Assembly: GCF_022045235.1 (NCBI RefSeq)
Contig: NW_027266266.1
Location: 35,340,001-35,404,000, forward strand
Origin: Haliotis cracherodii
Lineage: Eukaryota
Length of the DNA: 64,000 nt
Reading direction: 5' to 3'
In this document: positions 1,979 through 49,112 of the stretch, piece by piece
Position numbering within the stretch: position 1 is the first letter of the stretch
Layout of the letters: every line of letters starts with the position of its first letter
The notes under the pieces: model-generated
Told to the model about the DNA's origin: nothing
The model's input: the letters and a program-made list of their open reading frames with translations, nothing else
Databases searched by the model: none
Position numbers and translations under genes: made by a program

Positions 1979-2015
1979 TACGGGATAGGATGAACAGGGA
2001 TACACAGAGATATAC

Positions 2016-3022
2016 CTTCTAAAAATCTAGCAGACTTTGGGGTCCGCTGCTGACATGGATACCCTTACCCCAATAATCTAGCAGACTTTGGGGTCCGCTG
2101 CTGAGACAGGGATAGACCTTACCTCAAGAATAGAGCAGACTTTGGGGTAAGCGGCTGAGCCAGGGATAGACCTTACCCCAATAATCTAGCAGACTTTGGG
2201 GTCGGAGGCTGAGACTTGGATAGACCTTACCCCAATAATCTAGTTCACTTTGGGGCCAGTGGCTGAGACAGGGATAGACCTTACCCCAATAATCTAGTTC
2301 ACTTTGGGGTCAGCGGCTGAGACAGGGATAGACCTTACCTCAAGAATAGAGCAGACTTTGGGGTAAGCGGCTGAGCCAGGGATAGACCTTACCCCAATAA
2401 TCTAGCAGACTTTGGGGTCGGAGGCTGAGACTTGGATAGACCTTACCCCAATAATCTAGTTCACTTTGGGGCCAGTGGCTGAGACAGGGATAGACCTTAC
2501 CCCAATAATCTAGCAGACTTTGGGGTCGGAGGCTGAGACTGGGATAGACCTTACCCCAATAATCTAGCAGACTTTGGGGTCGGGGGCTGAGACTTGGATA
2601 GACCTTACCCCAATAATCTAGTTCACTTTGGGGTCAGCGGCTGAGACAGGGATAGACCTTACCTCAAGAATAGAGCAGACTTTGGGGTAAGCGGCTGAGC
2701 CAGGGATAGACCTTACCCCAATAATCTAGCAGACTTTGGGGTCGGAGGCTGAGACTTGGATAGACCTTACCCCAATAATCTAGTTCACTTTGGGGCCAGT
2801 GGCTGAGACAGGGATAGACCTTACCCCAATAATCTAGCAGACTTTGGGGTCGGAGGCTGAGACTGGGATAGACCTTACGCCAATAATCTAGCAGACTTTG
2901 GGGTCGGGGGCTGAGACTTGGATAGACCTTACCCCAATAATCTAGTTCACTTTGGGGTCGGAGGCTGAGACTGGGATAGACCTTACCCCAATAATCTAGC
3001 AGACTTTGGGGTCGGGGGCTGA
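2016..3022. repeat. 54-bp minisatellite, ~18 copies
   Basis: Unit GGGATAGACCTTACCCCAATAATCTAGCAGACTTTGGGGTCGGAGGCTGAGACT; ggataga recurs at 2164, 2218, 2272 and onward. Confidence 0.95.
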
Positions 3023-5547
3023 GGGGCATTAACAGGAGAAGTCTCAGTGTAATAGACATCTTTGGCGAGAATGTCTTTTTTGAATATTTTGACATGTTTC
3101 CACTGTTTGAGCATGTGGTTATCCATTGGAGTTTTTGTTACTTTTGAGTGTAGGACACTGGTACATCTTGCCAAAGATCCAAGTTCTATTCTTTGAGTAC
3201 TTATGCTTGAAGACTGTTGACTGCAGTTCCATCTTAGTAAGTAAAGCCTCTAATAATGAAAGATATAATCTGACATAACAGAAGTCGAATGTCTGTAAGC
3301 TGTGTGTCTAGCAGACCTACCCTGAATATGGTGACCAGACCCCCTCCTGTGTCTGCAACAAGCTTCAGATCAGACATTGTGAACCTGGTGCCTCCTTGTA
3401 GCAGTGTGTGTATGAATATGTGTTTACAGGCAGGCTGTACAATATGTGAAGCATTCTCAAGGGTGAAATCTTGCTGGCCAAGATGGTAGGACCTTAAATG
3501 GCAAATAACATTTTCATGATTTGTCTATAACTGACATTTGCTTAACAAGTTATGAAGAACAGTTATGCCAGCTCTGTGCAAGTGGGTCCCCAGTACCCCC
3601 CTTGTCCTGTGATCTGACAACATGGCAAGCACTGACTGGATTGTGCTCATGCTATCAACTGCTGGTTAGTCTGGTCCAGACTTGATGACAAAGTCCAAGG
3701 TGATAAAGCTGTAATACTTCACATGCATCAACACTGGTGGACTCTCTACCAGCTCCTACAGTAATGGCTCTCAACTTTGTCCAGTCTCAGAACCAGCTGT
3801 CTGTGTTGGTCAGTCCAAGAAAATGTTATACTGACCCTGATATGACCTTGTACTCTCCACCTACTGTGATCTGTTATTTGTGTATATTTGTGTAAATAGC
3901 CCTCGCTCCTGTACATGCTCTGTGCACTTTTGTATATGGTCAGCTGTTGTTGTGATCGAGAACCATACTTGCCGTTCAGTCAATGTAACCATCTAGTCAT
4001 TGTGGGTACTTCATGGGTTTGTGCAATCCTCCATCACCCTTGAACATGTTCCACCAATAAACCAAGCCACCGCCTTCTTCCAGCAACATGGAGATCAGCT
4101 AAGATACCAAGACCAGAGTACTCTTCAATATCAAGCAATGGTAGGCTTCACGCAAAATTCCATGAGGGCTCATTTGACTTCCTGGTGAGTTGTACATTGA
4201 CCTGAAGTAGAAATGCATCACTAGGACACTGCGCATCTGTATTCAGTTGTGATGGAGGACTGTGATGTTTGTAAACCTGTATTGACAATGCATCCAAGAC
4301 AGAGGAAATGTTTCTTAGATATCACACTTTTAGTCCATAATGGCACATAGCGTCTTCATCTGTCAAACATTTCAGTGATTATTTGTCCTTCAAATATTAA
4401 AGTTGTTTGATCAGATTTTGAAAATGTGATACACGTGTTAAGTTGTATCTGAGTGAAGACAGTAAGTCATAATGTAGACTTGTAACGTAGAGTTTCTTGT
4501 AGAGTAGTAGAGGTCACTCATTCATCGTAGTTTGAGCGGTTTTCATAACTTGATTTATGGATTGGTTTCTGATCTAAAATACGAAATAGATACCTAGTGA
4601 GTTGCCTCCCTTGCTATGTCACGATTTTGAAGTTTATTCACTTACTAAAGTTTGTTATCAGAGTAGGAAGAAAAATATCTGTTCATAAATCTTTATTCCA
4701 CATATGTGAAACTGTGAGGTCAACAGATCCACAAACCAAGCAACTAGAAAACCTGCCATAGTTACATTGGTGCAATTTGATTTTGTTGATTTTGAAAGTT
4801 TGGTGCTTAACATACCCTTCTGTGACCAGATGCTGTAAGTATTGTCTACTATCTCATCAGTGGCTAATCACATTGTGCTCTGTATACATTTGGTGATATT
4901 CTGGAATATTGTATCAGAGTTTAGTAAATTAGACAGCACATGCTCATCAACACAATGTTCATCTTAGTTCAGAAGTGATTCTTTATTACATGTCCAAACA
5001 GAAAGGAAGGTTTGTGTGAGGTTGTGGCTGTCTGCCTGTCGACTGTCAACAGTCATTTTAAACATTTTGACATCCATGAAGAATACAGAAGGGATCAAAC
5101 TGTGATTGGAAAATAATTGATCAAAGAAATGGTGTGATGAAAGTTTATATTACAAGTTTCACTTTAATCCTGATCGATGTAGCGGCCATATTGAAAATGC
5201 TATGATTTACTTTGATCACTGATGTGTTGATTGATTATTCATTGGTTGAAGTTTGATTTTTTTTCCTTTTATATGTGTTCAGTATTATTAGAGAGAATTC
5301 CCCCAATTACTTGTTCATAACTTCATAACTTTTTTCTAAGCCAAGGATTTTGTAGCCTTAATATGTAATGACATCAATGTAGAACTTCACAAAATCTTGT
5401 GTGACTGGATTTATGCTTTGTAGATTGTGTTCCCCTAGCCATACCAGGAGCCACTAAAGATGGTTTAGTTTAATCGTGAATGTGAACCTTCGACTTCCAC
5501 TTGCGTCAGTGTCCATGATTGTGGTTTTCACCAGCAATGCATAACAT

Positions 5548-5754
5548 TTGAAAATCCCGGTTACAAATAGTCTTCAGCAACCCATGCTTGCCGTAAAAGG
5601 CAACAATCTGGATCAGGTGGTCAGACACACTGACCTGGTTGATGCATGTCATCGTATCCCAGTTGAGTAGATTGATGCTCATGATGTCAATCACTGGAAT
5701 GTCTGGTCCACACTTAATTATTTACAGACCGCCGTCAACAAACACACAAACAAA
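5548..5754 (+). mobile_element. SINE-B copy
   Basis: tcttcagcaacccatgcttgccgtaaaaggc...gatgcatgtcatcgtatccc...atgatgtcaatcactgg...tatttacagac, AAAC-rich tail. Confidence 0.8.
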
Positions 5755-7006
5755 AGCCTATCATTTGACTTTCTTTCCTCACTAAGCTGAGATGTAATAC
5801 AACTTTTGAAGCACTGTTAGGCCAAACACACTCTCTCCTTCACTCCCTCCCACCTATTATGTCCTTTGAATAAAGGCTTTTCTGCAGCTAGTTTAACCCT
5901 ATTTGTTATGATAAGATGAATCTGAAGTCAACAAGTTATGATGTAATGTCTTGTTTCAAAGGTAGCATTATGTGTTACAACTGATGCAGGTTTTTCACAG
6001 TTTCTGATTAAAGTAGTTAGTTTCTTCATCATTTATTTCTTTTTAATATTTTACAAATATTTGTTAACAGAAAAAATGAAACGTGAAAACATGGTCAGGG
6101 TTGATTTGGGGTAAATTTCCTGAATAAATTAATGAAACAGTGAATTTATTAAAGAAGATTATTTTGCAGTGAAACAGTATTTGTAAATGTATTTGGTGGT
6201 ACATTGCTCATTTTTACAGGGGTAGGGGTTCCAGAGGATTTTGATGCACTAATGTACTGAAAATAATGACCCGCCCCTAATGCTTGTCATATTTTCTATT
6301 TTTGGAAGCCCTTCCCATGTCATTGTGCATTTTATTTCATGACCTTCCCTGAATAGAAAAAATGCAAAGTACTTAAATTACAACATGTTTTATTTATGCA
6401 ATGTTCATTTTTTGATGACCCTCCACAAATATGTGTACTATATTTGGTGACCCTCCCCAGATTCCCTCTGACCCACCAACCCCAGTAGTAAATGGCCCTC
6501 AGTAGAGAAAAGAACACTTTTTTATCTGGCTCAAACATATTGACCCATCTCTTTTCCATTTGTAATGACTGTAGTTGGTAGTGTGTTAAACAGAATAAGT
6601 GTCAGCAATGTGTTTACAGGTGCACAAACCATCAAATATTCTTCAAGGTACAGGCATTTTTATGTCATATTTTCTTTCAAGAACTTTATGGTTCATGCGT
6701 GGCAGGGCTGTAGGGTGGTGAAGTTAAAACGAATGTTATGAGAACAATAATGTGTTTTACATCTATGTATATTTTGGGTTCGTGAGTGTTTTCAGTTCTG
6801 TTTTTGCCAACTACTCAATCAGGTTGTAAATGTCTGAAGTGGGTCGGCAGTGAATGGGGGATGTATGAGTAGCTTCAGTATTATTTATTTCTGTACATAC
6901 TAGATAGACTTCAACCTTCTCATGGATGTATACAAGAATATGCTACGTTTGTACAATACTTTGGACAGAATTTGATATATGTATGGGAACTACGTAACTA
7001 TGCTTA

Positions 7007-7432
7007 TACACCTGGCATGTGGATGTCTTCACACCTGGCCTGTGCATGTCTTCACACCTGGCAAGCAGATGTCTTTACACCTGGCCTGTGGATGTCTTCA
7101 CACCTGGCCTGTGGATGTCTTCACACCTGGCATGGGGATGTCTTCACACCTGGCCTGTGCACGTCTTCACACCTGGCCTGTGGATGTCTTCACACCTGAC
7201 CTGTGCATGTCTTCACACCTGGCAAGCAGATGTCTTCACACCTGGCCTGTGGATATCTTCACACCTGGCAAGCAGATGTCTTCAAACCTGGCATGTGGAT
7301 GTCTTCACACCTGGCCTGTGCATGTCTTCACACCTGGCCTGTGGATGTCTTCACACCTGGCAAGCAGATGTCTTCACACCTGGCAAGCAGATGTCTTCAC
7401 ACCTGGCATGGGGATGTCTTCACACCTGGCAT
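7007..7432. repeat. 23-bp minisatellite, ~18 copies
   Basis: Unit TGTCTTCACACCTGGCCTGTGGA with variants (..GGCAAGCAGA..). Confidence 0.95.
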
Positions 7433-7894
7433 GCCGATGGTGTATTGTATTGTTGATGCATAATGCTTTTGATAAGTTAGTGTTCCATCATTCGTTTATT
7501 GTTTCAAGTAACTATTTGTTATCCTCAACAATATAACTCCTTAAGTCTGCTTTCTGTCGTGTTCAGTTCCAGGATGTGACACTCTACTAAAGCACTACAT
7601 GGTGTAGAAAGCTTCAATGAAACACAAGCATTCATTCCATTAACTGTAACTATGGTAACATGCATTCTAAATCCAAAACTTTTTTTTTTCAAATTGTTTT
7701 TGTTTAAAGAAACAAAACAGAACCAAGATTTTATTTGACCTACCTGTCAGGTAAACAGATTTGAATGTGTTTATTGCTGCAGTTTGAATACTACACCTAC
7801 AATGAGGCCCTGCCCAGGGCCCGGCAGGAATCAGGGGACTTCTGCCAAGGTTAGGACAAGGACTGGTTCACTTTCATTCTTCATTCAGATTGGG

Positions 7895-12099: not shown

Positions 12100-12347
12100 G
12101 ACCCGCGAAGATCCGGGTTAGAACAGATCTTCAGCAACCCATGCTTGTCGAAATAGGCGGCTATGCTTGTCGATGCGGGATAGGGTGGTCGGGTTCGCTG
12201 ACCTGGTTGATGCATGTCATCGTTCCCAATTGCGTGGATCAATCTCATGATGTCAATCACTGGATTGTCTGGTCCAGACTCGATTAGTTACATACCGCTG
12301 TCATATAGCTGGAATACTGCTCAGTGTGGCGTTAAACAACAAACAAA
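12100..12347 (+). mobile_element. SINE-B, full-length
   Basis: Starts gacccgcgaagatccgggttagaacagatcttcagcaaccc; ends gctggaatactgctcagtgtggcgttaaacaacaaac. Confidence 0.85.
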
Positions 12348-13064: not shown

Positions 13065-13748
13065 CTGTCCCACTCAACCAAGGTATAGACAGGCCTGTTT
13101 GTCACTGTCCCACTCAACCAAGGTATAGACAGGCTTGTCTGTCACTGTCCCACTCAACCAAGGTATAGACAGGCCTGTTTGCCACTGTCCCACTCAACCA
13201 AGGTATAGACAGGTCTGTTTGTCACTGTCCCACTCAACCAAGGTATAGACAGGCCTGTCTGTCACTGTCCTACTCAACCAAGGTATAGACAGGTCTGTTT
13301 GTCACTGTCCCACTCAACCAAGGTATAGACAGGCCTGTTTGCCACTGTCCCACTCAACCAAGGTATAGACAGGCCTGTTTGTCACTGTCCCACTCAACCA
13401 AGGTATAGACAGGTCTGTTTGTCACTGTCCTACTCAACCAAGGTATAGACAGGCCTGTCTGTCACTGTCCTACTCAACCAAGGTATAGACAGGTCTGTTT
13501 GTCACTGTCCCACTCAACCAAGGTATAGACAGGCCTGTTTGCCACTGTCCCACTCAACCAAGGTATAGACAGGCCTGTTTGTCACTGTCCCACTCAACCA
13601 AGGTATAGACAGGCCTGTCTGCCACTGTCCCACTCAACCAAGGTATAGACAGGCCTGTTTGCCACTGTCCCACTCAACCAAGGTATAGACAGGCCTGTTT
13701 GTCACTGTCCCACTCAACCAAGGTATAGACAGGCCTGTCTGTCACTGT
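13065..13748. repeat. 40-bp minisatellite, ~17 copies
   Basis: Unit CTGTCCCACTCAACCAAGGTATAGACAGGCCTGTTTGTCA; contains the (near-)palindrome AGACAGGCCTGTCT. Confidence 0.95.
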
Positions 13749-18657: not shown

Positions 18658-19589
18658 CCTATGAAATAATTTAAAAAAACAAGACAGATGGGCAGGTGAC
18701 CCTTAAGTGTGGCCCGCTTTAAGACATTATGAATATTTAAAAATCTTTAAAAAAAGAAGACACAATTCATGTCTTGATTCAGTTGAAATAATGAAAACAA
18801 TTACTCGATAATCTACAACATGTACAGGGAGTTATGATAAAATTGAATATGTAAGTAGTCTTAAAATGTTCTGCCAGATAGTCAGGCAGGTGGAGGGAAG
18901 CGTCATGCAGCCTGACAAATGTTTCCAGACATGGGCAGGGAGGCAGTTATTTTGGACACTGTTGAGGACCAATATTCTTATCTGGGATCCACACAATGCA
19001 GGATATATTATTCTATTGAGCTTTGTCGTAGCACTTGGACATGTTGGAGCCAGAAAGAGTGTAGTGAATGCTGCTTTAGCAGAGATTAATCTGGGATTCC
19101 AAACAAATTGCCCTTGGCATTCAAACTGGGAAAAACTGATTATTATTGTCATATTAGGAGGTATTTTAACACTGCATTCAATGCAATAGTGTAAAACTAA
19201 GCACTAAAGCCTTTTAGATCCTCTTTATTGCCTATGCATGCATTGCCTCTACAAGGCCTTAACATTGGTTATCATTGGTTTGAACTCTATGAATTGGGAA
19301 AATTTGTAATTCCAAATTGGGAAGTTGTACTGACTTGGGGTCGATAGTCGGCCTCAGAGCAGATCTAGACAAATCCGTGTTTGGTGCAAGGTATTTCATG
19401 CAGTCGTCAGTATTGATGCTGGAGCAGTATCATTGCAGCCTGAAGATAATGAATTCTGTACCAGATAAACCAGTGGTTGATAGCATAAGTAAGCAGTTCC
19501 TGCAGTCAGGATATGATGTTACAAACAAGATGGTTTGTACTAAAGAGCTATTCTCTCTTGTGACACACATGGCATACTGAAGACTATTC

Positions 19590-21482
19590 TGTTTTGTAAC
19601 AGTCATGGAGAGTTATTGTGTCTTGTGACAGTCATGGAGAGGTATTGTGTCTTGTGACAGTCATGTAGAGTTATTGTGTCTTGTAACAGTCATGGAGAGG
19701 TGTTGTGTCTTGTAACAGTCATGGAGAGTTATTGTGTCTTGTGACTCATGTAGAGTTATTGTGTCTTGTGACAGTCATGTAGAGTTATTGTGTCTTGTGA
19801 CAGTCATGTAGAGTTATTGTGTCTTGTAACAGTCATGGAGAGGTGTTGTGTCTTGTAACAGTTATGGAGAGTTATTGTGTCTTGTAACAGTCATGGAGAG
19901 TTATTGTGTCTTGTAACAGTCATGGAGAGTTATTCTGTCTTGTGACAGTCATTGAGAGGTGTTGTGTCTTGTGACAGTCATGGAGAGGTGTTGTGTCTTG
20001 TAACAGTCATGGTGAGTTATTGTGTCTTGTGACAGTCATGGAGAGGTATTGTGTCTTGTAACAGTCATGGAGAGTTATTCTGTCTTGTGACAGTCATGGA
20101 GAGTTATTGTGTCTTGTGACAGTCATGGAGAGGTGTTGTGTCTTGTGACAGTCATGTAGAGTTATTGTGTCTTGTAACAGTCATGGAGAGTTATTGTGTC
20201 TTGTGACAGTCATGTAGAGTTATTGTGTCTTGTAACAGTCATGGAGAGGTGTTGTGTCTTGTAACAGTCATGGAGAGTTATTGTGTCTTGTAACAGTCAT
20301 GGAGAGTTATTGTGTCTTGTAACAGTCATGGAGAGTTATTGTGTCTTGTGACAGTCATGGAGAGGTGTTGTGTCTTGTGACAGTCATGGAGAGGTGTTGT
20401 GTCTTGTGACAGTCATGGAGAGGTGTTGTGTCTTGTAACAGTCATGGTGAGTTATTGTGTCTTGTGACAGTCATGGAGAGGTATTGTGTCTTGTAACAGT
20501 CATGGAGAGTTATTGTGTCTTGTAACAGTCATGGAGAGGTGTTGTGTCTTGTAACAGTCATGGAGAGGTGTTGTGTCTTGTAACAGTCATGGAGAGTTAT
20601 TGTGTCTTGTAACAGTCATGGAGAGTTATTGTGTCTTGTAACAGTCATGGAGAGTTATTCTGTCTTGTGACAGTCATGGAGAGCTATTGTGTCTTGTGAC
20701 AGTCATGGAGAGGTGTTGTGTCTTGTGACAGTCATGGAGAGCTATTGTGTCTTGTAACCGTCATGGAGAGTTATTGTGTCTTGTAACAGTCATGGAGAGG
20801 TGTTGTGTCTTGTAACAGTCATGGAGAGTTATTGTGTCTTGTAACAGTCATGGAGAGCTATTTTGTCTTGTGACAGTCACGGAGAGTTATTGTGTCTTGT
20901 AACAGTCATGGAGAGCTGTTGTGTCTTGTGACAGTCATGGAGAGGTGTTGTGTCTTGTAACAGTCATGGAGAGGTGTTGTGTCTTGTAACAGTCATGGAG
21001 AGTTATTGTGTCTTGTAACAGTCATGGAGAGGTGTTGTGTCTTGTAACAGTCATGGAGAGTTATTGTGTCTTGTGACAGTCATGGAGAGGTGTTGTGTCT
21101 TGTGACAGTCACGGAGAGTTATTGTGTCTTGTGACAGTCATGGAGAGCTATTTTGTCTTGTGACAGTCATGTAGAGTTATTGTGTCTTGTAACAGTCATG
21201 GAGAGTTATTGTGTCTTGTAACAGTCATGGAGAGGTGTTGTGTCTTGTAACAGTCATGGAGAGTTATTGTGTCTTGTGACATCATGGAGAGGTGTTGTGT
21301 CTTGTAACAGTCATGGAGAGTTATTGTGTCTTGTAACAGTCATGGAGAGCTATTTTGTCTTGTGACAGTCATGGAGAGGTGTTGTGTCTTGTAACAGTCA
21401 TGGAGAGGTGTTGTGTCTTGTGACAGTCATGGAGAGTTATTGTGTCTTGTGACAGTCATGGAGAGGTGTTGTGTCTTGTAAC
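19590..21482. repeat. 29-bp minisatellite, ~65 copies
   Basis: Unit ACAGTCATGGAGAGTTATTGTGTCTTGTA with variants. Confidence 0.95.
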
Positions 21483-21941
21483 ATTATACAGGGTGAGAAC
21501 TATGGGAGACTGTTATGATTATATGTTATATAGCAGCATATATACATTATACAAGGTGAGAACTATAGGAAACTGTTGTGATTATATGTTCTATAGCAGT
21601 ATATACACTTTATACAGGGTGAGAACTATGGTATACTGTTATGATTATATGTTGTATAGCAGTATATACACTTTATACAGGGTGAGAACTATGGTATACT
21701 GTTGTGATTATATGTTGTATAGCAGTATATATAATTTATTCAGGGTGAGAACTATGGTATACTGTTGTGATTATATGTTGTATAGCAGTATATATACTTT
21801 ATTCAGGGTGAGAACTATGGTTTACTGTTGTAATTATATGTTGTATAGCAGTATATATACTTTATTCAGGGTGAGAACTATGGTTTACTGTTGTCAGGTT
21901 GTGATTATATGTTGTATAGCAGTATAGATATACGATACAGG
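21483..21941. repeat. 63-bp minisatellite, ~7 copies, abutting the 29-bp array
   Basis: Unit TATACAGGGTGAGAACTATGGTATACTGTTGTGATTATATGTTGTATAGCAGTATATACACTT. Confidence 0.9.
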
Positions 21942-23911: not shown

Positions 23912-24123
23912 TTCCTGCGATGATCCGGACTAGAATTAGTCTTCAGCAACTCAAGCTTGTTGTAAAGAGGCGCTGGTGGGATCGGGTGGTCAGACTCACT
24001 AACTTGGTTGATGCATGTCATCGTAACCCAGTTGCATAAATTGATGCTTATGATGTCAATCACTGGATTGTCTGGTCCTGACCCGATTATTTACAGACGT
24101 TAAGCAACAAGCAAACAAACAAA
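23912..24123 (+). mobile_element. SINE-B nested inside a SINE-A remnant
   Basis: TSD acaatgt(a/g)tgaa at 23900-23911 and 24124-24135; the flanks rejoin to SINE-A 'gacatgggtacaatgtgtgaagcccat'. Confidence 0.8.
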
Positions 24124-25759: not shown

Positions 25760-26269
25760 GCATGTCTTCATACCTAACTCCCACCCAGAGATGTTGACAT
25801 TGCCATTCTAACAACTCAGTGATGTATGTCAATCTGGAAGTTAATTATTCCCCTGATTACGTCTGCCATTACATGTGAGTTTGTTGCCTGGAACAGTAAA
25901 CACCATTCACTTGTTCAGTACACACTGTGGTTGCTTGGTCATGTTCCTGGTGTTTGTAAAGGGCTTGATATTGTCTTCAAATAGAAAGGCGGGTGTGGAT
26001 ATTATAATTTAAGCTTAAGTCCAACCAGGAAGTAAAAGTCCTTTTCATGTTATGTTTGAGGTAAATGTTTTATCACACTGTCAAAACTTGGTGACCCAAA
26101 TGATAAAGGTAGTAAACCACAGATCACATTCACCAACATGTGACTTGAAAGCTATTACATTGAGACATGACTGGTGTTTGACACTGTGTGAACTGTTGAA
26201 CATTGTGATGTGTGTGAAGTACACCACAGTCAGTACCCTTAAAAAAATCCATGTTTGGACCAGGCCAAC

Positions 26270-27222
26270 CATTGGGTAACTGCAAGAGACACCATCTGTC
26301 TATCCGTGTATGTTGGCACACAATCAGCTAGGCCATACATTGGATAACTGCAAGAGACACCATCCATCCACCTACCTGTCCGTGTACATTGACACACAAT
26401 CAGCTAGGCCATACAATGGATAACTGCAAGAGACACCATCCATCCACCTACCTGTCCGTGTACATTGACACACAATCAGCTAGGCCATACATTGGGTAAC
26501 TGCAAGAGACACCATCCATCCATCCAATTGTCCGTGTACATTAACACACAATCAGCTTGGTCATACATTGGTGTAACTGCAAGAGACACCATCCATCCAT
26601 CCAACTGTCTGTGTACATTAACACACAATCAGCTTGGTCATACATTGGTGTAACTGCAAGAGACACCATCCATCCATCCAACTGTCCGTGTACATTAACA
26701 CACAATCAGCTTGGTCATACATTGGTGTAACTGCAAGAGACACCATCCATCCATCCAATTGTCCGTGTACATTAACACACAATCAGCTTGGTCATACATT
26801 GGTGTAACTGCAAGAGACACCATCCATCCATCCAATTGTCCGTGTACATTAACACACAATCAGCTTGGTCATACATTGGTGTAACTGCAAGAGACACCAT
26901 CCATCCATCCAACTGTCTGTGTACATTAACACACAATCAGCTTGGTCATACATTGGAGTAACTGCAAGAGACACCATCCATCCATCCAACTGTCCGTGTA
27001 CATTAACACACAATCAGCTTGGTCATACATTGGTGTAACTGCAAGAGACACCATCCATCCATCCAACTGTCCGTGTACATTAACACACAATCAGCTTGGT
27101 CATACATTGGTGTAACTGCAAGAGACACCATCCATCCATCCAACTGTCCGTGTACATTAACACACAATCAGCTTGGTCATACATTGGAGTAACTGCAAGA
27201 GACACCATCCATCCATCCATCC
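26270..27222. repeat. 77-bp minisatellite with internal (CCAT)n, ~12 copies
   Basis: Unit TAACTGCAAGAGACACCATCCATCCATCCAACTGTCCGTGTACATTAACACACAATCAGCTTGGTCATACATTGGTG. Confidence 0.95.
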
Positions 27223-28988: not shown

Positions 28989-29255
28989 AACCCATGAAGA
29001 TCTGGGTAGAGAATAAGAGACTAGGCCTTCAGCAAACCAATCTTGTCGTAAGAGGGGACTATGTTTGTTTTAGGAGACTAACGGGATACGGAGGTGAGGC
29101 TTGCTGACTTCATTAATGCATATCATCGTATCCCAATGGCGTAGATCGCTACTCATGATGTCAATCACTGGATTGTCTGGCCCAGACTTGATTATTTACA
29201 GGCTGCCATCATATACCTGGAATATTGCTGAGTGAGGCGTTAACCAAGAAACCAA
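28989..29255 (+). mobile_element. SINE-B, full-length with TSD
   Basis: TSD cact(a/g)tagggtta at 28976-28988 and 29256-29268; contains ttgtcgtaagagg. Confidence 0.85.
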
Positions 29256-29529: not shown

Positions 29530-31512
29530 GGGGTTTGAATGTTGAGGCCCCAAGCCTTGTTTACTGTTACCAGAGGGTTATGGTAAGGATCAGGGTTTGA
29601 ATGTTTGGGCCCCCAAGCCTTGTTTACTGTTACCAGAGGGTTATGGTAAGGATCAGGGTTTGAATGTTTGGGCCCCCAAGCCTTGTTTACTGTTACCAGA
29701 GGGTTATGGTAAGGATCAGGGTTTGAATGTTGAGGCTCCAAGCCCTGTTTACTGTTACCAGAGGGTTATGGTAAGGATCAGGGTTTGAATGTTGGGCCCC
29801 CAAGCCTTGTTTACTGTTACCAGAGGGTTATGGTAAGGATCAGGGTTTGAATGTTTGGGCCCCCAAGCCTTGTTTACTGTTACTAGAGGGTTATGGAAGG
29901 ATCAGGGTTTGAATGTTGGGCCCCCAAGCCTTGTTTACTGTTACCAGAGGGTTATGGTAAGGATCAGGGTTTGAATGCTGGGCCCCCAAGCCTTGTTTAC
30001 TGTTACCAGAGGGTTATGGTAAGGATCAGGGTTTGAATGTTAGGGCTCCAAGCCTTGTTTACTGTTACCAGAGGGTTATGGTAAGGATCAGGGTTTGAAT
30101 GTTGGGGCTCCAAGCCCTGTTTACTGTTACCAGAGGGTTATTGTAAGGATCAGGGTTTGAATGTTGGGCCCCGAAGCCTTGTTTACTGTTACCAGAGGGT
30201 TATGGTAAGGATCAGGGTTTGAATGTTGGGCCTCCAAGCCTTGTTTACTGTTACCAGAGGGTTATTGTAAGGATCAGGGTTTGAATGTTGGGCCCCCAAG
30301 CCTTGTTTACTGTTACCAGAGGGTTATGGTAAGGATCAGGTTTTGAATGTTTGGGCTCCAAGCCTTGTTTACTGTTACCAGAGGGTTATGGTAAGGATCA
30401 GGGTTTGAATGTTGGGCCCCCAAGCCCTGTTTACTGTTACCAGAGGGTTATTGTAAGGATCAGGGTTTGAATGTTGAGGCTCCAAGCCCTGTTTACTGTT
30501 ACCAGAGGGTTATGGTAAGGATCAGGGTTTGAATGTTGGGCCCCCAAGCCCTGTTTACTGTTACCAGAGGGTTATTGTAAGGATCAGGGTTTGAATGTTG
30601 AGGCTCCAAGCCCTGTTTACTGTTACCAGAGGGTTATGGTAAGGATCAGGGTTTGAATGTTGGGCCTCCAAGCCTTGTTTACTGTTACCAGAGGGTTATG
30701 GTAAGGATCAGGGTTTGAATGTTGGGCCCCCAAGCCTTGTTTACTGTTACCAGAGGGTTATGGTAAGGATCAGGGTTTGAATGTTGGGCCTCCAAGCCTT
30801 GTTTACTGTTACCAGAGGGTTATGGTAAGGATCAGGGTTTGAATGTTGGGCCCCCAAGCCTTGTTTACTGTTACCAGAGGGTTATGGTAAGGATCAGGGT
30901 TTGAATGTTTGGGCCCCCAAGCCTTGTTTACTGTTACCAGAGGGTTATGGTAAGGATCAGGGTTTGAATGTTGGGCCTCCAAGCCTTGTTTACTGTTACC
31001 AGAGGGTTATGGTAAGGATCAGGGTTTGAATGTTGGGCCCCCAAGCCTTGTTTACTGTTACCAGAGGGTTATGGTAAGGATCAGGGTTTGAATGTTGAGG
31101 CTCCAAGCCCTGTTTACTGTTACCAGAGGGTTATGGTAAGGATCAGGGTTTGAATGTTAGGGCTCCAAGCCTTGTTTACTGTTACCAGAGGGTTATGGTA
31201 AGGATCAGGGTTTGAATGTTTGGGCTCCAAGCCTTGTTTACTGTTACCAGAGGGTTATGGTAAGGATCAGGGTTTGAATGTTGAGGCCCCCAAGCCCTGT
31301 TTACTGTTACCAGAGGGTTATGGTAAGGATCAGGGTTTGAATGTTTGGGCCCCCAAGCCTTGTTTACTGTTACCAGAGGGTTATGGTAAGGATCAGGGTT
31401 TGAATGTTGAGGCCCCCAAGCCTTGTTTACTGTTACCAGAGGGTTATGGTAAGGATCAGGGTTTGAATGTTGGGCCTCCAAGCCTTGTTTACTGTTACCA
31501 GAGGGTTATGGC
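29530..31512. repeat. 62/63-bp minisatellite, ~32 copies
   Basis: Unit GGGTTTGAATGTTGGGCCCCCAAGCCTTGTTTACTGTTACCAGAGGGTTATGGTAAGGATCA. Confidence 0.95.
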
Positions 31513-34500
31513 AAGGTCATAATCCCTTCATGCTTCGGGGCTTATGGAGTGTTATGGAGCAGGAAACAGATACAATACCATGTAGGCTGCCAATGTGGCA
31601 AGATAAGATATTTGATTCTGTTACCGGAAAGTAAGGGTCATTGTGTGTTATCATTAATCAGATGTTATCTGAATGGATAGGAAAATATGTGTGATTTTTT
31701 TTGTAATGAAAAGAAAAAGATATGAGCACGTAACAACGTATTGTTTTACATTGACGTAAACGTTTTTGTACTTTTATAAAAGCTATGATAGTACTAGATG
31801 AATTTGTCTGCAAATTTTGCAAAACCATAATCAACACTACAGTGACACCTGCCTCTTTGGCAAGGTCATTGACAAAATGATTTTGTTCATAACATTCAAT
31901 GATGCTCCGATGAGGATGTTTAATATCACTTTGGGCTTCCTCCCACATTAGGCTGGCACTCTGTGATGTGGTTCAAATACTTGTGAACTGATGAAGATGA
32001 AATTGTGACTGCAGGTATGAGGGGCACATGTCATCTGGTGAGGAAATTATATCAAGTGTTACACATCTGCAGAAGCACCTGCCTACACTATAATGTGTTC
32101 CTCGGCACATTGGAAAATGAAGCAAAATTCATAACAAAATCAGTTATACATGTTTAGACCAATACATGTTTTCACATAATAACCCCAAGCCATCCATAAG
32201 TCTCTATGAAATTCTTCAAATGTACAGTTAAATTAACAAATAGATTATGTTTACAAAAGGGGGGCAACTAATGTTGCTCCTAGACTACCTTACTCAGTGT
32301 ACTGTCTGCTTGTTTAGACTTGCTAATTACCAAGACGCAACAACCAGAATGACACAGGTTCTTCCATTTGTACAGCCTTTGTTTTTGTACGATGTTTCTG
32401 ATAATATTACAAGTGAATTCGAGCATTTTCTCATGTACATCAGCCCTAGGGCCAGAATTGCAGTTTGCTTGGCCATCACTCCAGGAGGCTTGTCAATCCA
32501 TTAGGTTTTGAGCAGTTGGACACCTGTGCACGAAACTAGGTTCAGTTAAGGTCCACCCACAACTGTTATTGATCAGAATTAGTTCTGCAGAAAGCAGTCT
32601 CGTGTGTAGGCCTCAATGGGAGCGGGGGTTTTCATGTTATTCAGAATAAATTTTGAACTTCTAATGCCATGTAGGCTTTTTTCATTTTGAAAGGTTTTCT
32701 TCAGGACATTGATTTCTTTTGAGAATGAATGAAGACAAGTTTGGGTTTTGAAATTTGTTATTTTGTTCAGCAGCTGTTGACTATCTCACACCCTCAAATA
32801 ATCATTATAATCATGATAATGGTGTAGACATATATTAGTAGAATGGTAGGCGGGGTAGTTTTCAGTCCTGAGTGTATAAGAAATGGGTATCCTAAATAGG
32901 TTTTATTTATTTATTTTTTAAATTGAGCAGGATTTGACAGTGCAGCAGAGAACTGGCTCAGTAGAGAATTAGCTAAACAGTTGTCTCAAAACATAAACAA
33001 TTAAAGCCTTTGTATTGAATATATTCCCCCAAGTTGTGTTTTCATTCTGATAAGGAGACACAAAACAAGCAAAATAATGAGACTGATTTTTTCATATTTT
33101 CTACTTGAAAGTTGGATGAGGTCAGTTTGAACACTTCTAAATACATGCCAAGCTAGTACTCACATCAACTGATCCCTTACCTGATCGATAGGGGATTTGT
33201 ATGGAATTTAGAGGAATTTGGCGGAACAAGATAAGACTATTCATGATAGTTTAGAGTTGCATTTTTCAAAGCCATGTTATAGGATTAATTTCAATTTCAA
33301 TTTTGGTGAATGTTTTGGTGAATGTTATCATGTTTATTGAAAACATTCGCATGTTTTTATGATTCCTTATATATTTGTAGGAAAACATTTTTTAAGTGAA
33401 ATGTTGCCTGGAATGTTATCAATTGATTAGTTTTGTTAATAATCATAGAACTGGAGAGACTCTCTGTTTGAATATTCTATTTGTTTATGATGATACTTAC
33501 ATTTTGTAATATTGCAGCTACTATTGTATCTAATGGAAAACGCCCATACAGGTATCCATGCTTGTTGTTAAAATAACTTGTGCGATGGAACTGTAAAAAC
33601 ACCTGGCTTAAAACATGTGTTGATTGTTGTGATGGGTCATGTATGGCATTCATTATTGTCACCAATTATGGAGTGATTGATTAAGACATCTGTTCACATT
33701 AGAGAATGAAAAAGTGGTTATGGATGTTTAATAAGTGTAATATTTTGTTACCATTGCTTACTGGTTGACACAGATGGTATCTTCGCTCCAGAAACTTTGA
33801 TGACGAAGATGAGAGGGGTGTGTGTGTGTGGGGGTTGTCCCTAACTTTTGACATGTAGATGTTTTTGTAGACTTAAAATTAAGGATATTAACTTCTACTG
33901 TGAGTGGCATTCAGAGTGGCATTAATGTCCTGATATTAATGTGATAGAAAACTTACAATATCCATTCCAAGTTAAACTAACTGCTGATCGGCTCAATTAT
34001 ATTCTGCATCCAATCACAGCATCCAAGAAGACAGGCTTTGACTTGAATTGTGTGACTGTAACTGAATTTTATGATGCAAGTCTGTTGAATTCCTGTATGG
34101 GGCTTTGTCCAGACTTAGAACTTTTTAACTGGACTTGCAATCTACTGGACTTGTCAGTCTGGCTGTCGGGCTTTATATGATGTGTCATTTAAAGCTAATG
34201 TATTAAAGTTTGTATTGTTTCTACAGCAGATCTTTGGGTCTGAGGCCATTGCTCACTCTGTGTTGGGAGTGCTTGATTTCCTCAGTGTTTTGGAGACCAG
34301 TAGTTGGCACAGCTGGCTCTTCCATTCACCTCCCACACAATTCAATTTGTGACTCTCCTGGCCTTGGACTTCCTGATTGAATAACTGCTCTTTGCTTCTG
34401 GATGAATGCTGATGAATAACTGATTGATGATTCTCATTAGCAAGGGGCAACTTTCACAGTTTGGGCTTTAACATAGTGTAAAACTTAGCTCCATATGACT

Positions 34501-43171: not shown

Positions 43172-43260
43172 TATGTTATGTTGATTGTGTTGACATTGCC
43201 AGTGATTAACACTGACCCTCTATTCACCACTATTCACCTCTATTCATCTCTGAATCACCT

Positions 43261-43531
43261 GACCCCTGAAGATAGGGGGTAGAATAGATCTTCAGCAACT
43301 CATGCTTGCCATAACAGGCGACTTAGGATGCTTGTCATATAAGAGGCGACTAACGGGATTGGGTGGTCAGGCTCGCTGACTTTGTTGATGCATGTCATCG
43401 ATCCCAATTGCGAGGATCGATGTTCATGATGTCAAACACTGGATTGTCTGGTCCAGACTCTAATCTACAGACAGCTGCCATATAGCTGGAATATTGCTGA
43501 TTGTGGCGTTAAACAACAAACAACAACACCA
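43261..43531 (+). mobile_element. SINE-B, full-length with TSD
   Basis: TSD ctga(a/c)tcacct at 43250-43260 and 43532-43542; starts GACCCCTGAAGAT. Confidence 0.88.
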
Positions 43532-44044
43532 CTGACTCACCTTGACATTGTCTATATGTAAGCCCTGGTAAGCTCACAGCAAATAAAGGTGACTTATGTA
43601 ACTGTAACTTGGCTATTTGTCTTTTCAAACTGGACCGACACAGAGAGGTTGGTTCCCAGGTCGGGACTGGTTGTGAATAGAAGTGCCATGTCGGCAGTGT
43701 TTTGAAACTTAAATTGAATATGTTATGTTGGCAATATTTGAATGACAAACTTTGTGCTTCAAATAGATTATGATGGATCAGGTGCAATGACAAAATTCAA
43801 TGGATCTGATTGAGACAAGAGAGAATATTTTAACGTGAAGTAAGATTTTTTAATTGTATTCACAGATGTGCTCATGATTGTTGTGTCTTGTGATGTTTGA
43901 TTAGACTGCCAGAATCAAATTGTTTTTAGTTATCTTGTGTGATCTGTATTTGTTGTGTATGGTGACTGTCCAATGGATCCACTTGTAACAAAGGGTGTAC
44001 AGTACACCCTTGATAGTTTGCATCTATAAGTATGTTACTTTCCG

Positions 44045-48840: not shown

Positions 48841-48870
48841 GTTGAGTGATTGAGGCAGCACAAGTGTGTG

Positions 48871-49112
48871 TTGTTGGTTTGTTGTTTAACGCCACATTCA
48901 GCAATATTCCAGCTGTATGACTGCAGTCTGTAAATAACCGAGTTTGGACCATAAAATCCAGTGATTGACAACATGAGCATCGATCCACGCAATTGGGATA
49001 CGATGACATGCATCAACCACGTCAGCGAGTCTGACCTCCCGATCCTGTTAGTCGCCTTTTATGGCAAGCATGGGTTGCTGAAGACCTATTCTACCCCGGA
49101 TCTTCACGGGTC
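48871..49112 (-). mobile_element. SINE-B, full-length, minus strand
   Basis: Reverse complement starts GACCCGTGAAGATCCGGGGTAGAATAGGTCTTCAGCAACCC; TSD gtgtgtg at 48864-48870 and 49113-49119. Confidence 0.88.

Follow-up and report, generated by a model that had tools for sequence, protein, structure and literature searches.

A structured SINE leader of Haliotis cracherodii shared with LINEs and RNA viruses: a predicted double pseudoknot that may set RNA 5' ends

SINE heads are normally Pol III genes. What, then, defines the 5' end of a SINE that begins with neither a tRNA nor a B box? The question is raised by a 64,000-nucleotide stretch of the Haliotis cracherodii genome (contig NW_027266266.1, positions 35,340,001 to 35,404,000; hereafter the window), in which an earlier note, made from the sequence alone, had described a SINE that starts with a structured leader and had proposed that a structured or catalytic RNA, instead of a Pol III start, releases it from read-through transcripts. 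Our analysis indicates that the observation of the SINE is real and that its structured, non-tRNA head was rightly noticed, was wrongly folded and is probably not catalytic.

The SINE, its 5' end and its published relatives

The copy under study lies on the plus strand between a left TSD of 11 bp at 43250..43260 and its partner, the right TSD at 43532..43542, which differ by one mismatch. It consists of the structured leader, predicted to be a double pseudoknot with a duplicated core hairpin (43261..43357; RNA model R1 matches 43260-43336 with 55.6 bits, and the fold covaries across families), a body that is neither tRNA-like nor alignable to a LINE 5' UTR (43358..43472), a tail homologous to the 3' end of I-group (Nimb-like) LINEs that is common to the tRNA-headed SINE-A (43473..43514), and terminal (CAAA/CAA)n repeats (43515..43531), all on the plus strand. 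BLAST together with the RNA model placed eight leader heads in the window, and SINE copies were present at every position given in the earlier note. The best-preserved copy, with a single core hairpin, is on the minus strand at 48868..49112 (74.3 bits, the score of a copy that belonged to the model's training set). Further copies are on the plus strand at 12100..12346 (found by BLAST and the RNA model), 28989..29255, 23912..24123, where the tail is shortened, and 5542..5755, the last being absent from the earlier list.

TSDs had been said to fix the same 5' end in four copies. They do stand directly before +1 in all four, with one mismatch each and with lengths of 11 bp (43261), 13 bp (28989), 12 bp (23912) and 11 bp (49112, minus strand), although the last is weak because it lies inside a CA-rich run; at the 12100 copy, searched alongside these four, no TSD was found. 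The genome-wide picture was drawn from 464 kb, comprising 40 stretches at or near round coordinates and the window, in which 64 copies were picked by their body alone. Extrapolated to the 1.18-Gb genome, the SINE of ~255 nt would number roughly 1.6e5 copies. Positions 1-8 were reached by 39 of the 64 copies, the remainder being scattered truncations. Genome-wide, a TSD was detected in 34 of 58 tail-bearing copies, compared to 9 of 500 in the control, and 21 of these 34 stop exactly before +1. Heterogeneous 5' ends, which would have told against the proposal, were thus not what the genome presented; the precise 5' end holds. The base at +1 is G in 57 of 71 copies.

The decayed tRNA-like segment that had been read behind the leader was not recovered by ARAGORN, Rfam or a B-box scan on the SINE copies. 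ARAGORN and Rfam were blank, and the best B-box in the SINE has 2 mismatches, the commonest value in shuffles and hence chance level, while three tRNA-headed SINE-A copies in the window, serving as positive control, match the B-box with 0-1 mismatches. An A-box-like string with one mismatch does occur at +17, and 47% of shuffles are equally good over 140 nt. Neither hallmark of a tRNA-derived SINE, an A box near +8 to +19 with a downstream B box or similarity to a tRNA, was found, and with no B box and no tRNA a Pol III start is unlikely, as the earlier note had supposed. The body gave no alignment to the LINE 5' UTR. The tail, examined in copy L012 against the 3' ends of four LINEs, scored 43-52 (shuffle maxima 37-40) and beat all 300 shuffles in each of the four. 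SINE-A, which has a tRNA head with good A and B boxes and the same LINE-type tail, occurs in the window at 7890, 12415, 45935 and 58051. The window also holds minisatellite arrays with units of ~54-80 bp at 2004-3023, 7008-7439, 13065-13748, 19544-21930, 26262-27219 and 29531-31516.

The SINE is very likely the mollusc LP-SINE described in PMC4758252, judging from sequence features, since the Haliotis consensus is given there as a figure. In that description LP-SINEs are 255 bp long, occur in Haliotis, Ostrea, Saccostrea and Littorina, and have in their first ~70 nt a segment common to the 5' ends of Nimb-17_LMi, I-3_DR and RTE-9_CPB. Like the published Hdi_LP/Hmi_LP, Lsa_2 and Sgl_LP, the H. 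cracherodii element is ~255 bp long and has variable TSDs, terminal tandem repeats and a LINE-derived head of ~70 nt that is homologous to Nimb, I and RTE LINE 5' ends; a model built without H. cracherodii LINEs finds the heads of those LINEs at 51-63 bits. Core and AGAA strings like those of the H. cracherodii element appear in the scallop head printed in Fig. S2 of PMC4758252. Both the SINE family and the head that it has in common with LINEs have thus very likely been known since 2016. The describers of the family read the head as a LINE promoter, by their own statement a proposal without a test, and left LP-SINE expression open; the sections of the paper available to us offer that promoter reading and contain no RNA fold, viral occurrence or HDV partner. 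Likewise, the terms 'LP-SINE', 'LINE promoter' and 'ribozyme' are absent from the accessible part of a 2024 bivalve SINE survey (PMC11481361). What appears to be new is therefore the double-pseudoknot fold, its arrangement in tandem behind an HDV-like ribozyme and its presence in viruses, none of which we found described in a search of mainly open-access literature.

A predicted fold of two tandem pseudoknots

For the ~75-nt leader the predicted fold comprises two H-type pseudoknots in tandem and a hairpin whose 19-nt core is nearly invariant. Read from the 5' end, its parts are S1a, a single nucleotide, S2a, S1b, a linker that varies, AGAAU, S2b, S3a, S4a, S3b, the P5 hairpin with its GUAARA loop, GACUAA and S4b. 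On the plus strand of the 43261 copy, the first helix, S1, starts 2 nt after the element start (43263-43266 / 43275-43278), S2 would form the first pseudoknot (43268-43274 / 43287-43293) around the invariant AGAAU (43281-43285), and S3 follows at 43294-43297 / 43303-43306. The loop of S3 is the 5' strand of S4 and is mutated in this copy. The P5 hairpin, GUAARA loop and GACUAA core are present as a tandem duplicate (43307-43325 and 43333-43353), both halves of which have decayed, and the 3' strand of S4, closing the second pseudoknot, is at 43355..43357.

The prediction was supported by covariation across families. A search with an exact 17-nt core pattern returned at least 120 metagenome stretches and 5 viral ones, and the matches sort by eye into more than 10 families with unrelated bodies. 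In an alignment of 23 heads chosen for diversity and aligned without structure information, which are not all independent because some come from related families, S1, S2, S3 and P5 were paired in 88.3% of 411 cells, and 77 cells carried two-sided changes. None of 500 shuffles matched the observed pairing, and slid controls paired at 35-52%. Two-sided changes affected 7 of 7 pairs in S2 and 3 of 4 in S3. When family matching was tested by permutation on 23 heads, a set slightly different from the first and with about 5 heads mis-registered, p was <5e-5 for each of S1, S3 and S4. With the six viral heads alone the corresponding values were 0.025 (S1), 0.057 (S3) and 0.075 (S4), and S4 pairing is poor in two viral heads. 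Because the search was keyed on the core, part of the core's invariance is a product of that choice, and P5 is so nearly invariant that it contributes no covariation. A looser viral pattern matched 92 stretches and added zero true instances in the viral collection. By eye, the scallop head of PMC4758252 Fig. S2 fits the same four helices.

Within the SINE family covariation was not significant, with 5 two-sided changes compared to 2.8 in shuffles and 144 of 1000 shuffles as high, so the earlier argument that the variants of the hairpin stay pairable has little force there, and it is between families that covariation backs a structured leader. Single copies fold no better than shuffles (z of -0.08 to -1.07 for four SINE heads), and only 2 of the 10 sequences submitted to single-strand folding, with a tool that draws no pseudoknots, had a z under -2. 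The elements of the fold first drawn for the leader fared unequally. Its stem GAAGATC/GGTCTTC is real, and so is the core hairpin with its tandem duplication, which is double in 28 and single in 17 of the 45 copies reaching position 20 or nearer the start. The pairing of the loop GGG(G/T)T with ACCC found no support (family-matching permutation p=0.40), nor did the closing of the 5' CCCGT with a distal ACGGG (p=0.89, only 38% of cells paired); the strands of these two long-range pairings pair locally instead, in S1 and S4.

Rfam 15 gave no match to the leader in the window, at 18 motif loci or in one near-intact copy, and its 9 weak matches in the window all lie off the SINE copies. Cross-family covariation and the blank ARAGORN and Rfam results agree with the earlier note that the head is a structured RNA rather than a tRNA head, and we conclude that the leader represents a new family of structured RNAs, one that Rfam 15 does not contain.

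Between the SINE 5' end and the first helix there are 0-2 nt. By eye, metagenome SINE families carry insertions of ~55-130 nt between S1 and AGAAU and still start at the base of that helix, and some look like a leader, a plain linker and a LINE-type tail only. Several unusual arrangements were seen as well. In L089 the whole leader occurs twice in tandem, with stem sequences that differ yet pair; L416 is a satellite array made of the leader's core hairpin unit alone; and in families L148, L081 and L167, from another animal's metagenome, the same head is fused before a tRNA-like segment, resembling the arrangement described for scallop MESC SINEs.

The leader in LINEs and in viral records

HDV-like ribozymes sit at the 5' ends of R2, L1Tc/NARTc (Pr77) and RTE elements. 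To look at LINEs of H. cracherodii, a LINE found behind the motif in the contaminated symbiont scaffold L221 was used as the query for a genome search, which gave 115 matches, and twenty LINE regions were fetched, selected for a full-length second ORF. The one LINE checked has endonuclease, reverse transcriptase and RNase H, the I-group layout; the Nimb label is our assumption, which follows PMC4758252 and general background rather than a tree. The earlier note had suggested looking for the leader at the 5' ends of autonomous LINEs. It was found in 19 of 20 regions, ~350-600 nt before ORF1, internal and behind a predicted ribozyme.

This ribozyme is a 57-nt HDV-like element directly 5' of the leader, with a spacer of 0 nt. 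It fits the HDV descriptor with a 7-bp P2, and Rfam RF02682 scores it at 27.5-29 bits in 4 of 4 loci, below the gathering score of 44. LINE flanks diverge before its G1 in 30 of 30 cases. Its exact end is found upstream in 244 of 289 exact LINE-type motif matches, and the whole ribozyme is kept in all 30 LINE heads fetched regardless of upstream sequence. Among the first 100 of the listed heads, 7 of 8 further ones with a non-exact upstream sequence keep the full ribozyme, L398 being without it, and at most 1 of the 100 starts at the fold. One compensatory S2 variant was noted by eye in the LINE heads. The sequences thus suggest that the HDV-like ribozyme makes the LINE 5' end and that the leader is internal in these LINEs, not their end-maker. 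A variant core pattern, aimed at an autonomous LINE with the SINE's own head and body, led to 20 places, which are SINE copies, older relatives and one satellite, and to no LINE.

The same fold was found behind the last ORF, in coding sense, in five kinds of unrelated RNA-virus record. S1 begins 10 nt after the stop of a tetra-like capsid gene assigned by Pfam (L192 and L194, two samples), 6 nt after the stop in a record with a tombus-like RdRp and a noda-like capsid (L199) and 23 nt after the stop in one with a toti-like RdRp (L198). The distance is about 75 nt behind another tombus-like RdRp (L195) and about 100 nt behind a 1161-aa ORF without a Pfam match (L196), a record taken as an RNA virus from a GDD-like motif only. 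From the core to the record end there are 44-136 nt in the viral records, and L196 has a partial second copy in which S2 is altered but still pairs. Stem sequences differ in each viral copy, which argues that these are not recent SINE insertions. A 212,482-bp AT-rich DNA virus record with an NAD-dependent ligase, presumably iridovirus-like, carries an intact leader between two genes, with no SINE tail.

An occurrence in bacteria was considered and rejected. Seven of 24 matches in bacterial genome records fit the fold, and they look like eukaryotic contamination or chimeric contig ends, with a LINE in L221, simple repeats in L220 and L217, and contig ends in L217 and L223; for this reason none was counted as bacterial. 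The records L221, L213, L217-L220 and L223 are deposited as bacterial but contain animal LINE or SINE sequence, likely through host contamination or chimeric contig ends.

Possible functions of the leader

Any account of the leader has to cover four facts: the SINE starts at the first base pair despite inserts, the fold is retained behind a ribozyme, it is found in viral 3' UTRs, and its core does not vary. The account we lean towards, tentatively and at not quite an even chance, is that the leader may be an exoribonuclease-resistant (xrRNA-like) RNA that sets and protects the SINE 5' end. Host transcripts reading through a SINE copy would be degraded 5' to 3' by Xrn1/Xrn2-type enzymes until the fold halted them, leaving an uncapped RNA that starts at +1. 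The LINE reverse transcriptase would copy this trimmed RNA from its LINE-type tail, and the SINE would need no internal promoter. In RNA viruses the same block would yield a short subgenomic 3' RNA, and in LINEs the fold would be a second barrier behind the HDV-like ribozyme.

Several observations fit a nuclease block. A start at the base of the first helix despite 55-130-nt inserts suits an end defined by RNA, not by fixed promoter spacing; the SINE families that look like head, linker and tail only suggest that the head by itself may suffice; and we count the absence of a B box and a tRNA in its favour. Plant-virus xrRNAs are reported to stop Xrn1 'precisely at the base of P1' (PMC12397905), and coremin to stop it one nucleotide before the first hairpin (PMC10520033); the leader likewise has a pseudoknot at its 5' end, and the SINE end coincides with the base of its first helix. 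Coremin xrRNAs, with a conserved 20-nt sequence, are described as spread over unrelated RNA viruses (PMC10520033), and by analogy the placement of the leader after the last viral stop may be counted on the same side. Like the flavivirus classes 1 and 2, the plant-virus class 3 and coremin, as far as their descriptions were covered, the leader is a pseudoknotted or short conserved RNA in viral 3' UTRs that is sometimes in tandem. Unlike them, it has no 5' three-way junction, coremin string or Rfam match, consists of two tandem H-type pseudoknots and is found at retroelement 5' ends; searches by Rfam or motif gave no match to the known classes 1-3 or coremin. A nuclease block would cover the SINE start and the viral placement well, and retention as redundancy. 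Against it, a tight ring is hard to reconcile with long unstructured inserts of 55-130 nt in the putative encircling strand, and the G at +1 may have been copied from a cap, in which case the transcript would have been capped. In addition, LINEs retain the fold even though the ribozyme already makes their end, which a role in translation explains more directly.

Such a role, as a 3'CITE-like or IRES-like element for cap-independent translation or for binding ribosomes or initiation factors, is the main rival, though rather unlikely. It would permit the translation of viral RNAs that have no cap and of LINE RNA left uncapped by the ribozyme, and would bring SINE RNA near the ribosomes making LINE reverse transcriptase. 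Tombus-, toti- and tetra-like groups, to which the viral hosts belong by Pfam, often do without a cap or poly(A), and 3'CITEs are located immediately behind the final stop codon. The BTE and similar 3' cap-independent translation enhancers resemble the leader in their near-invariant core of ~17-19 nt, their loop rich in purines and their position right behind the final stop in tombus-like viruses; the leader differs from BTE-type elements in sequence and fold, and to our knowledge these have been described from plant viruses, not from retroelements. The invariant 19-nt core of the leader, with its purine-rich loop, would suit a conserved host ligand. In 19 of the 20 LINE regions the leader also follows the ribozyme at a distance of 0 nt and precedes ORF1 by about 350-600 nt, and ribozyme-cut retroelement RNAs are reported to be uncapped and to need such help (PMC6765202). 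However, the same source reports HDV-like ribozymes themselves to be IRES-like (PMC6765202), and SINEs encode nothing. A translation element would cover the retention, the viral placement and the invariant core, but it leaves the coincidence of SINE 5' ends with the first base pair unexplained, and a separate promoter would be needed. The nuclease block and the translation role could both be true together.

The suggestion of the earlier note, a new self-cleaving ribozyme cutting just 5' of S1, we consider improbable. The 5' ends of the SINE are precise, and the double pseudoknot is compact, with an invariant core ending in CUAA, which we take to resemble the HDV J4/2 strand; the 3' half of the leader presumably resembles HDV P1, P2, P4 and J4/2 (CUAA) in strand order. 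The genomic position is also that of HDV-like ribozymes, a true one of which heads the H. cracherodii LINEs, but the leader has no P3/L3, fits no HDV descriptor and lies behind the ribozyme instead of replacing it. The descriptor (G-initiated 7-bp P1, P3/L3, P1.1, C-N-R-A in J4/2, nested P2) was found nowhere in the SINE head; of the 24 windows taken around other heads, L119 alone fitted it, and weakly. Crude patterns for hammerhead, twister and pistol found no core in the one copy searched, and Rfam gave no match to these in the window or at 18 loci; descriptor, patterns and Rfam thus bear out the earlier remark that the head does not match canonical HDV, hammerhead or twister cores. Both retroelements and the UTRs of linear RNA viruses are known to carry ribozymes (PMC8501958, PMC13725137). 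Twister variants at the 5' end of Perere-3 are likewise structured RNAs beside a TSD at a LINE 5' end, but those variants are reported to cleave (PMC8501958), and the leader has no twister core. What self-cleavage fails to cover is the retention behind a ribozyme and the viral 3' UTR placement. An active cut at the fold should strip the upstream HDV-like ribozyme, so its presence ahead of 30 of 30 motif-picked LINE heads and 7 of 8 with differing upstream letters speaks against cutting, and a cut would take the 3' terminus off plus-strand viral genomes. The leader is therefore probably not the cutter: of the proposed release by a structured or catalytic leader, the structured, LINE-shared head stands and the self-cleaving role finds no support.

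The published reading, an internal DNA promoter derived from the LINE, with the RNA structure secondary or doubling as in Pr77, has a slim chance: the head is placed at the 5' extremity of LINEs and SINEs (PMC4758252), Pr77 is described as both promoter and ribozyme (PMC3383444), the +1 G could be a copied cap and the A-box-like string is at +17, but the start stays fixed even with AGAAU and the core moved 55-130 nt off, there is no B box, nearly half of the shuffles give an equal A box, and a DNA promoter fails because it leaves the compensatory pairing and the presence in RNA viruses unexplained.

Returning to the nuclease block, the combined claim of a mobile RNA module that passes between LINEs, SINEs, RNA viruses and a large DNA virus, and of a new nuclease-blocking class that matures promoter-less SINEs, is one we hold with reserve, at somewhat less than an even chance. 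The covarying fold replaces the promoter guess with concrete RNA tests. If the nuclease block is true, SINEs would be made by a new route, and the leader would be a cellular xrRNA carried by retroelements. That one ~75-nt module is found both in unrelated RNA viruses and in the retroelements of several animal hosts suggests a general trick for life as an uncapped RNA, and its sharing points to an exchange of RNA parts between viruses and retroelements. A compact module that protects ends or promotes translation could help to stabilise uncapped template RNAs.

Some further observations concern the RNA and the LINEs. In small-RNA runs bearing the label of a related species, 14 reads fell on the SINE and there was no sense pile-up on the LINE head, in a data set with too few reads. 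Run X22 contained 127 antisense 31-nt reads with a single start and U as first base, piRNA-like, over the first pseudoknot (L345:2167-2197), which may be copies of one molecule. In contigs of run X4, depth over the HDV-like ribozyme and the first pseudoknot (L345:2098-2202) is far above that downstream, and loose ends leave after the S3 loop, possibly reflecting a separate abundant HDV-headed non-autonomous element of another species. The LINEs of L343-L361 (e.g. L345:2104-2160) belong to a very large I-group family that seems to be young and in which many copies have an intact ORF2, and their ribozyme is compact at 57 nt, with almost no P4, and falls under the Rfam gathering threshold. Lastly, a conserved multi-helix segment, in which differences between subfamilies look compensatory, lies ~230-330 nt behind the ORF2 stop in the 3' UTR of the LINEs in L343-L362.
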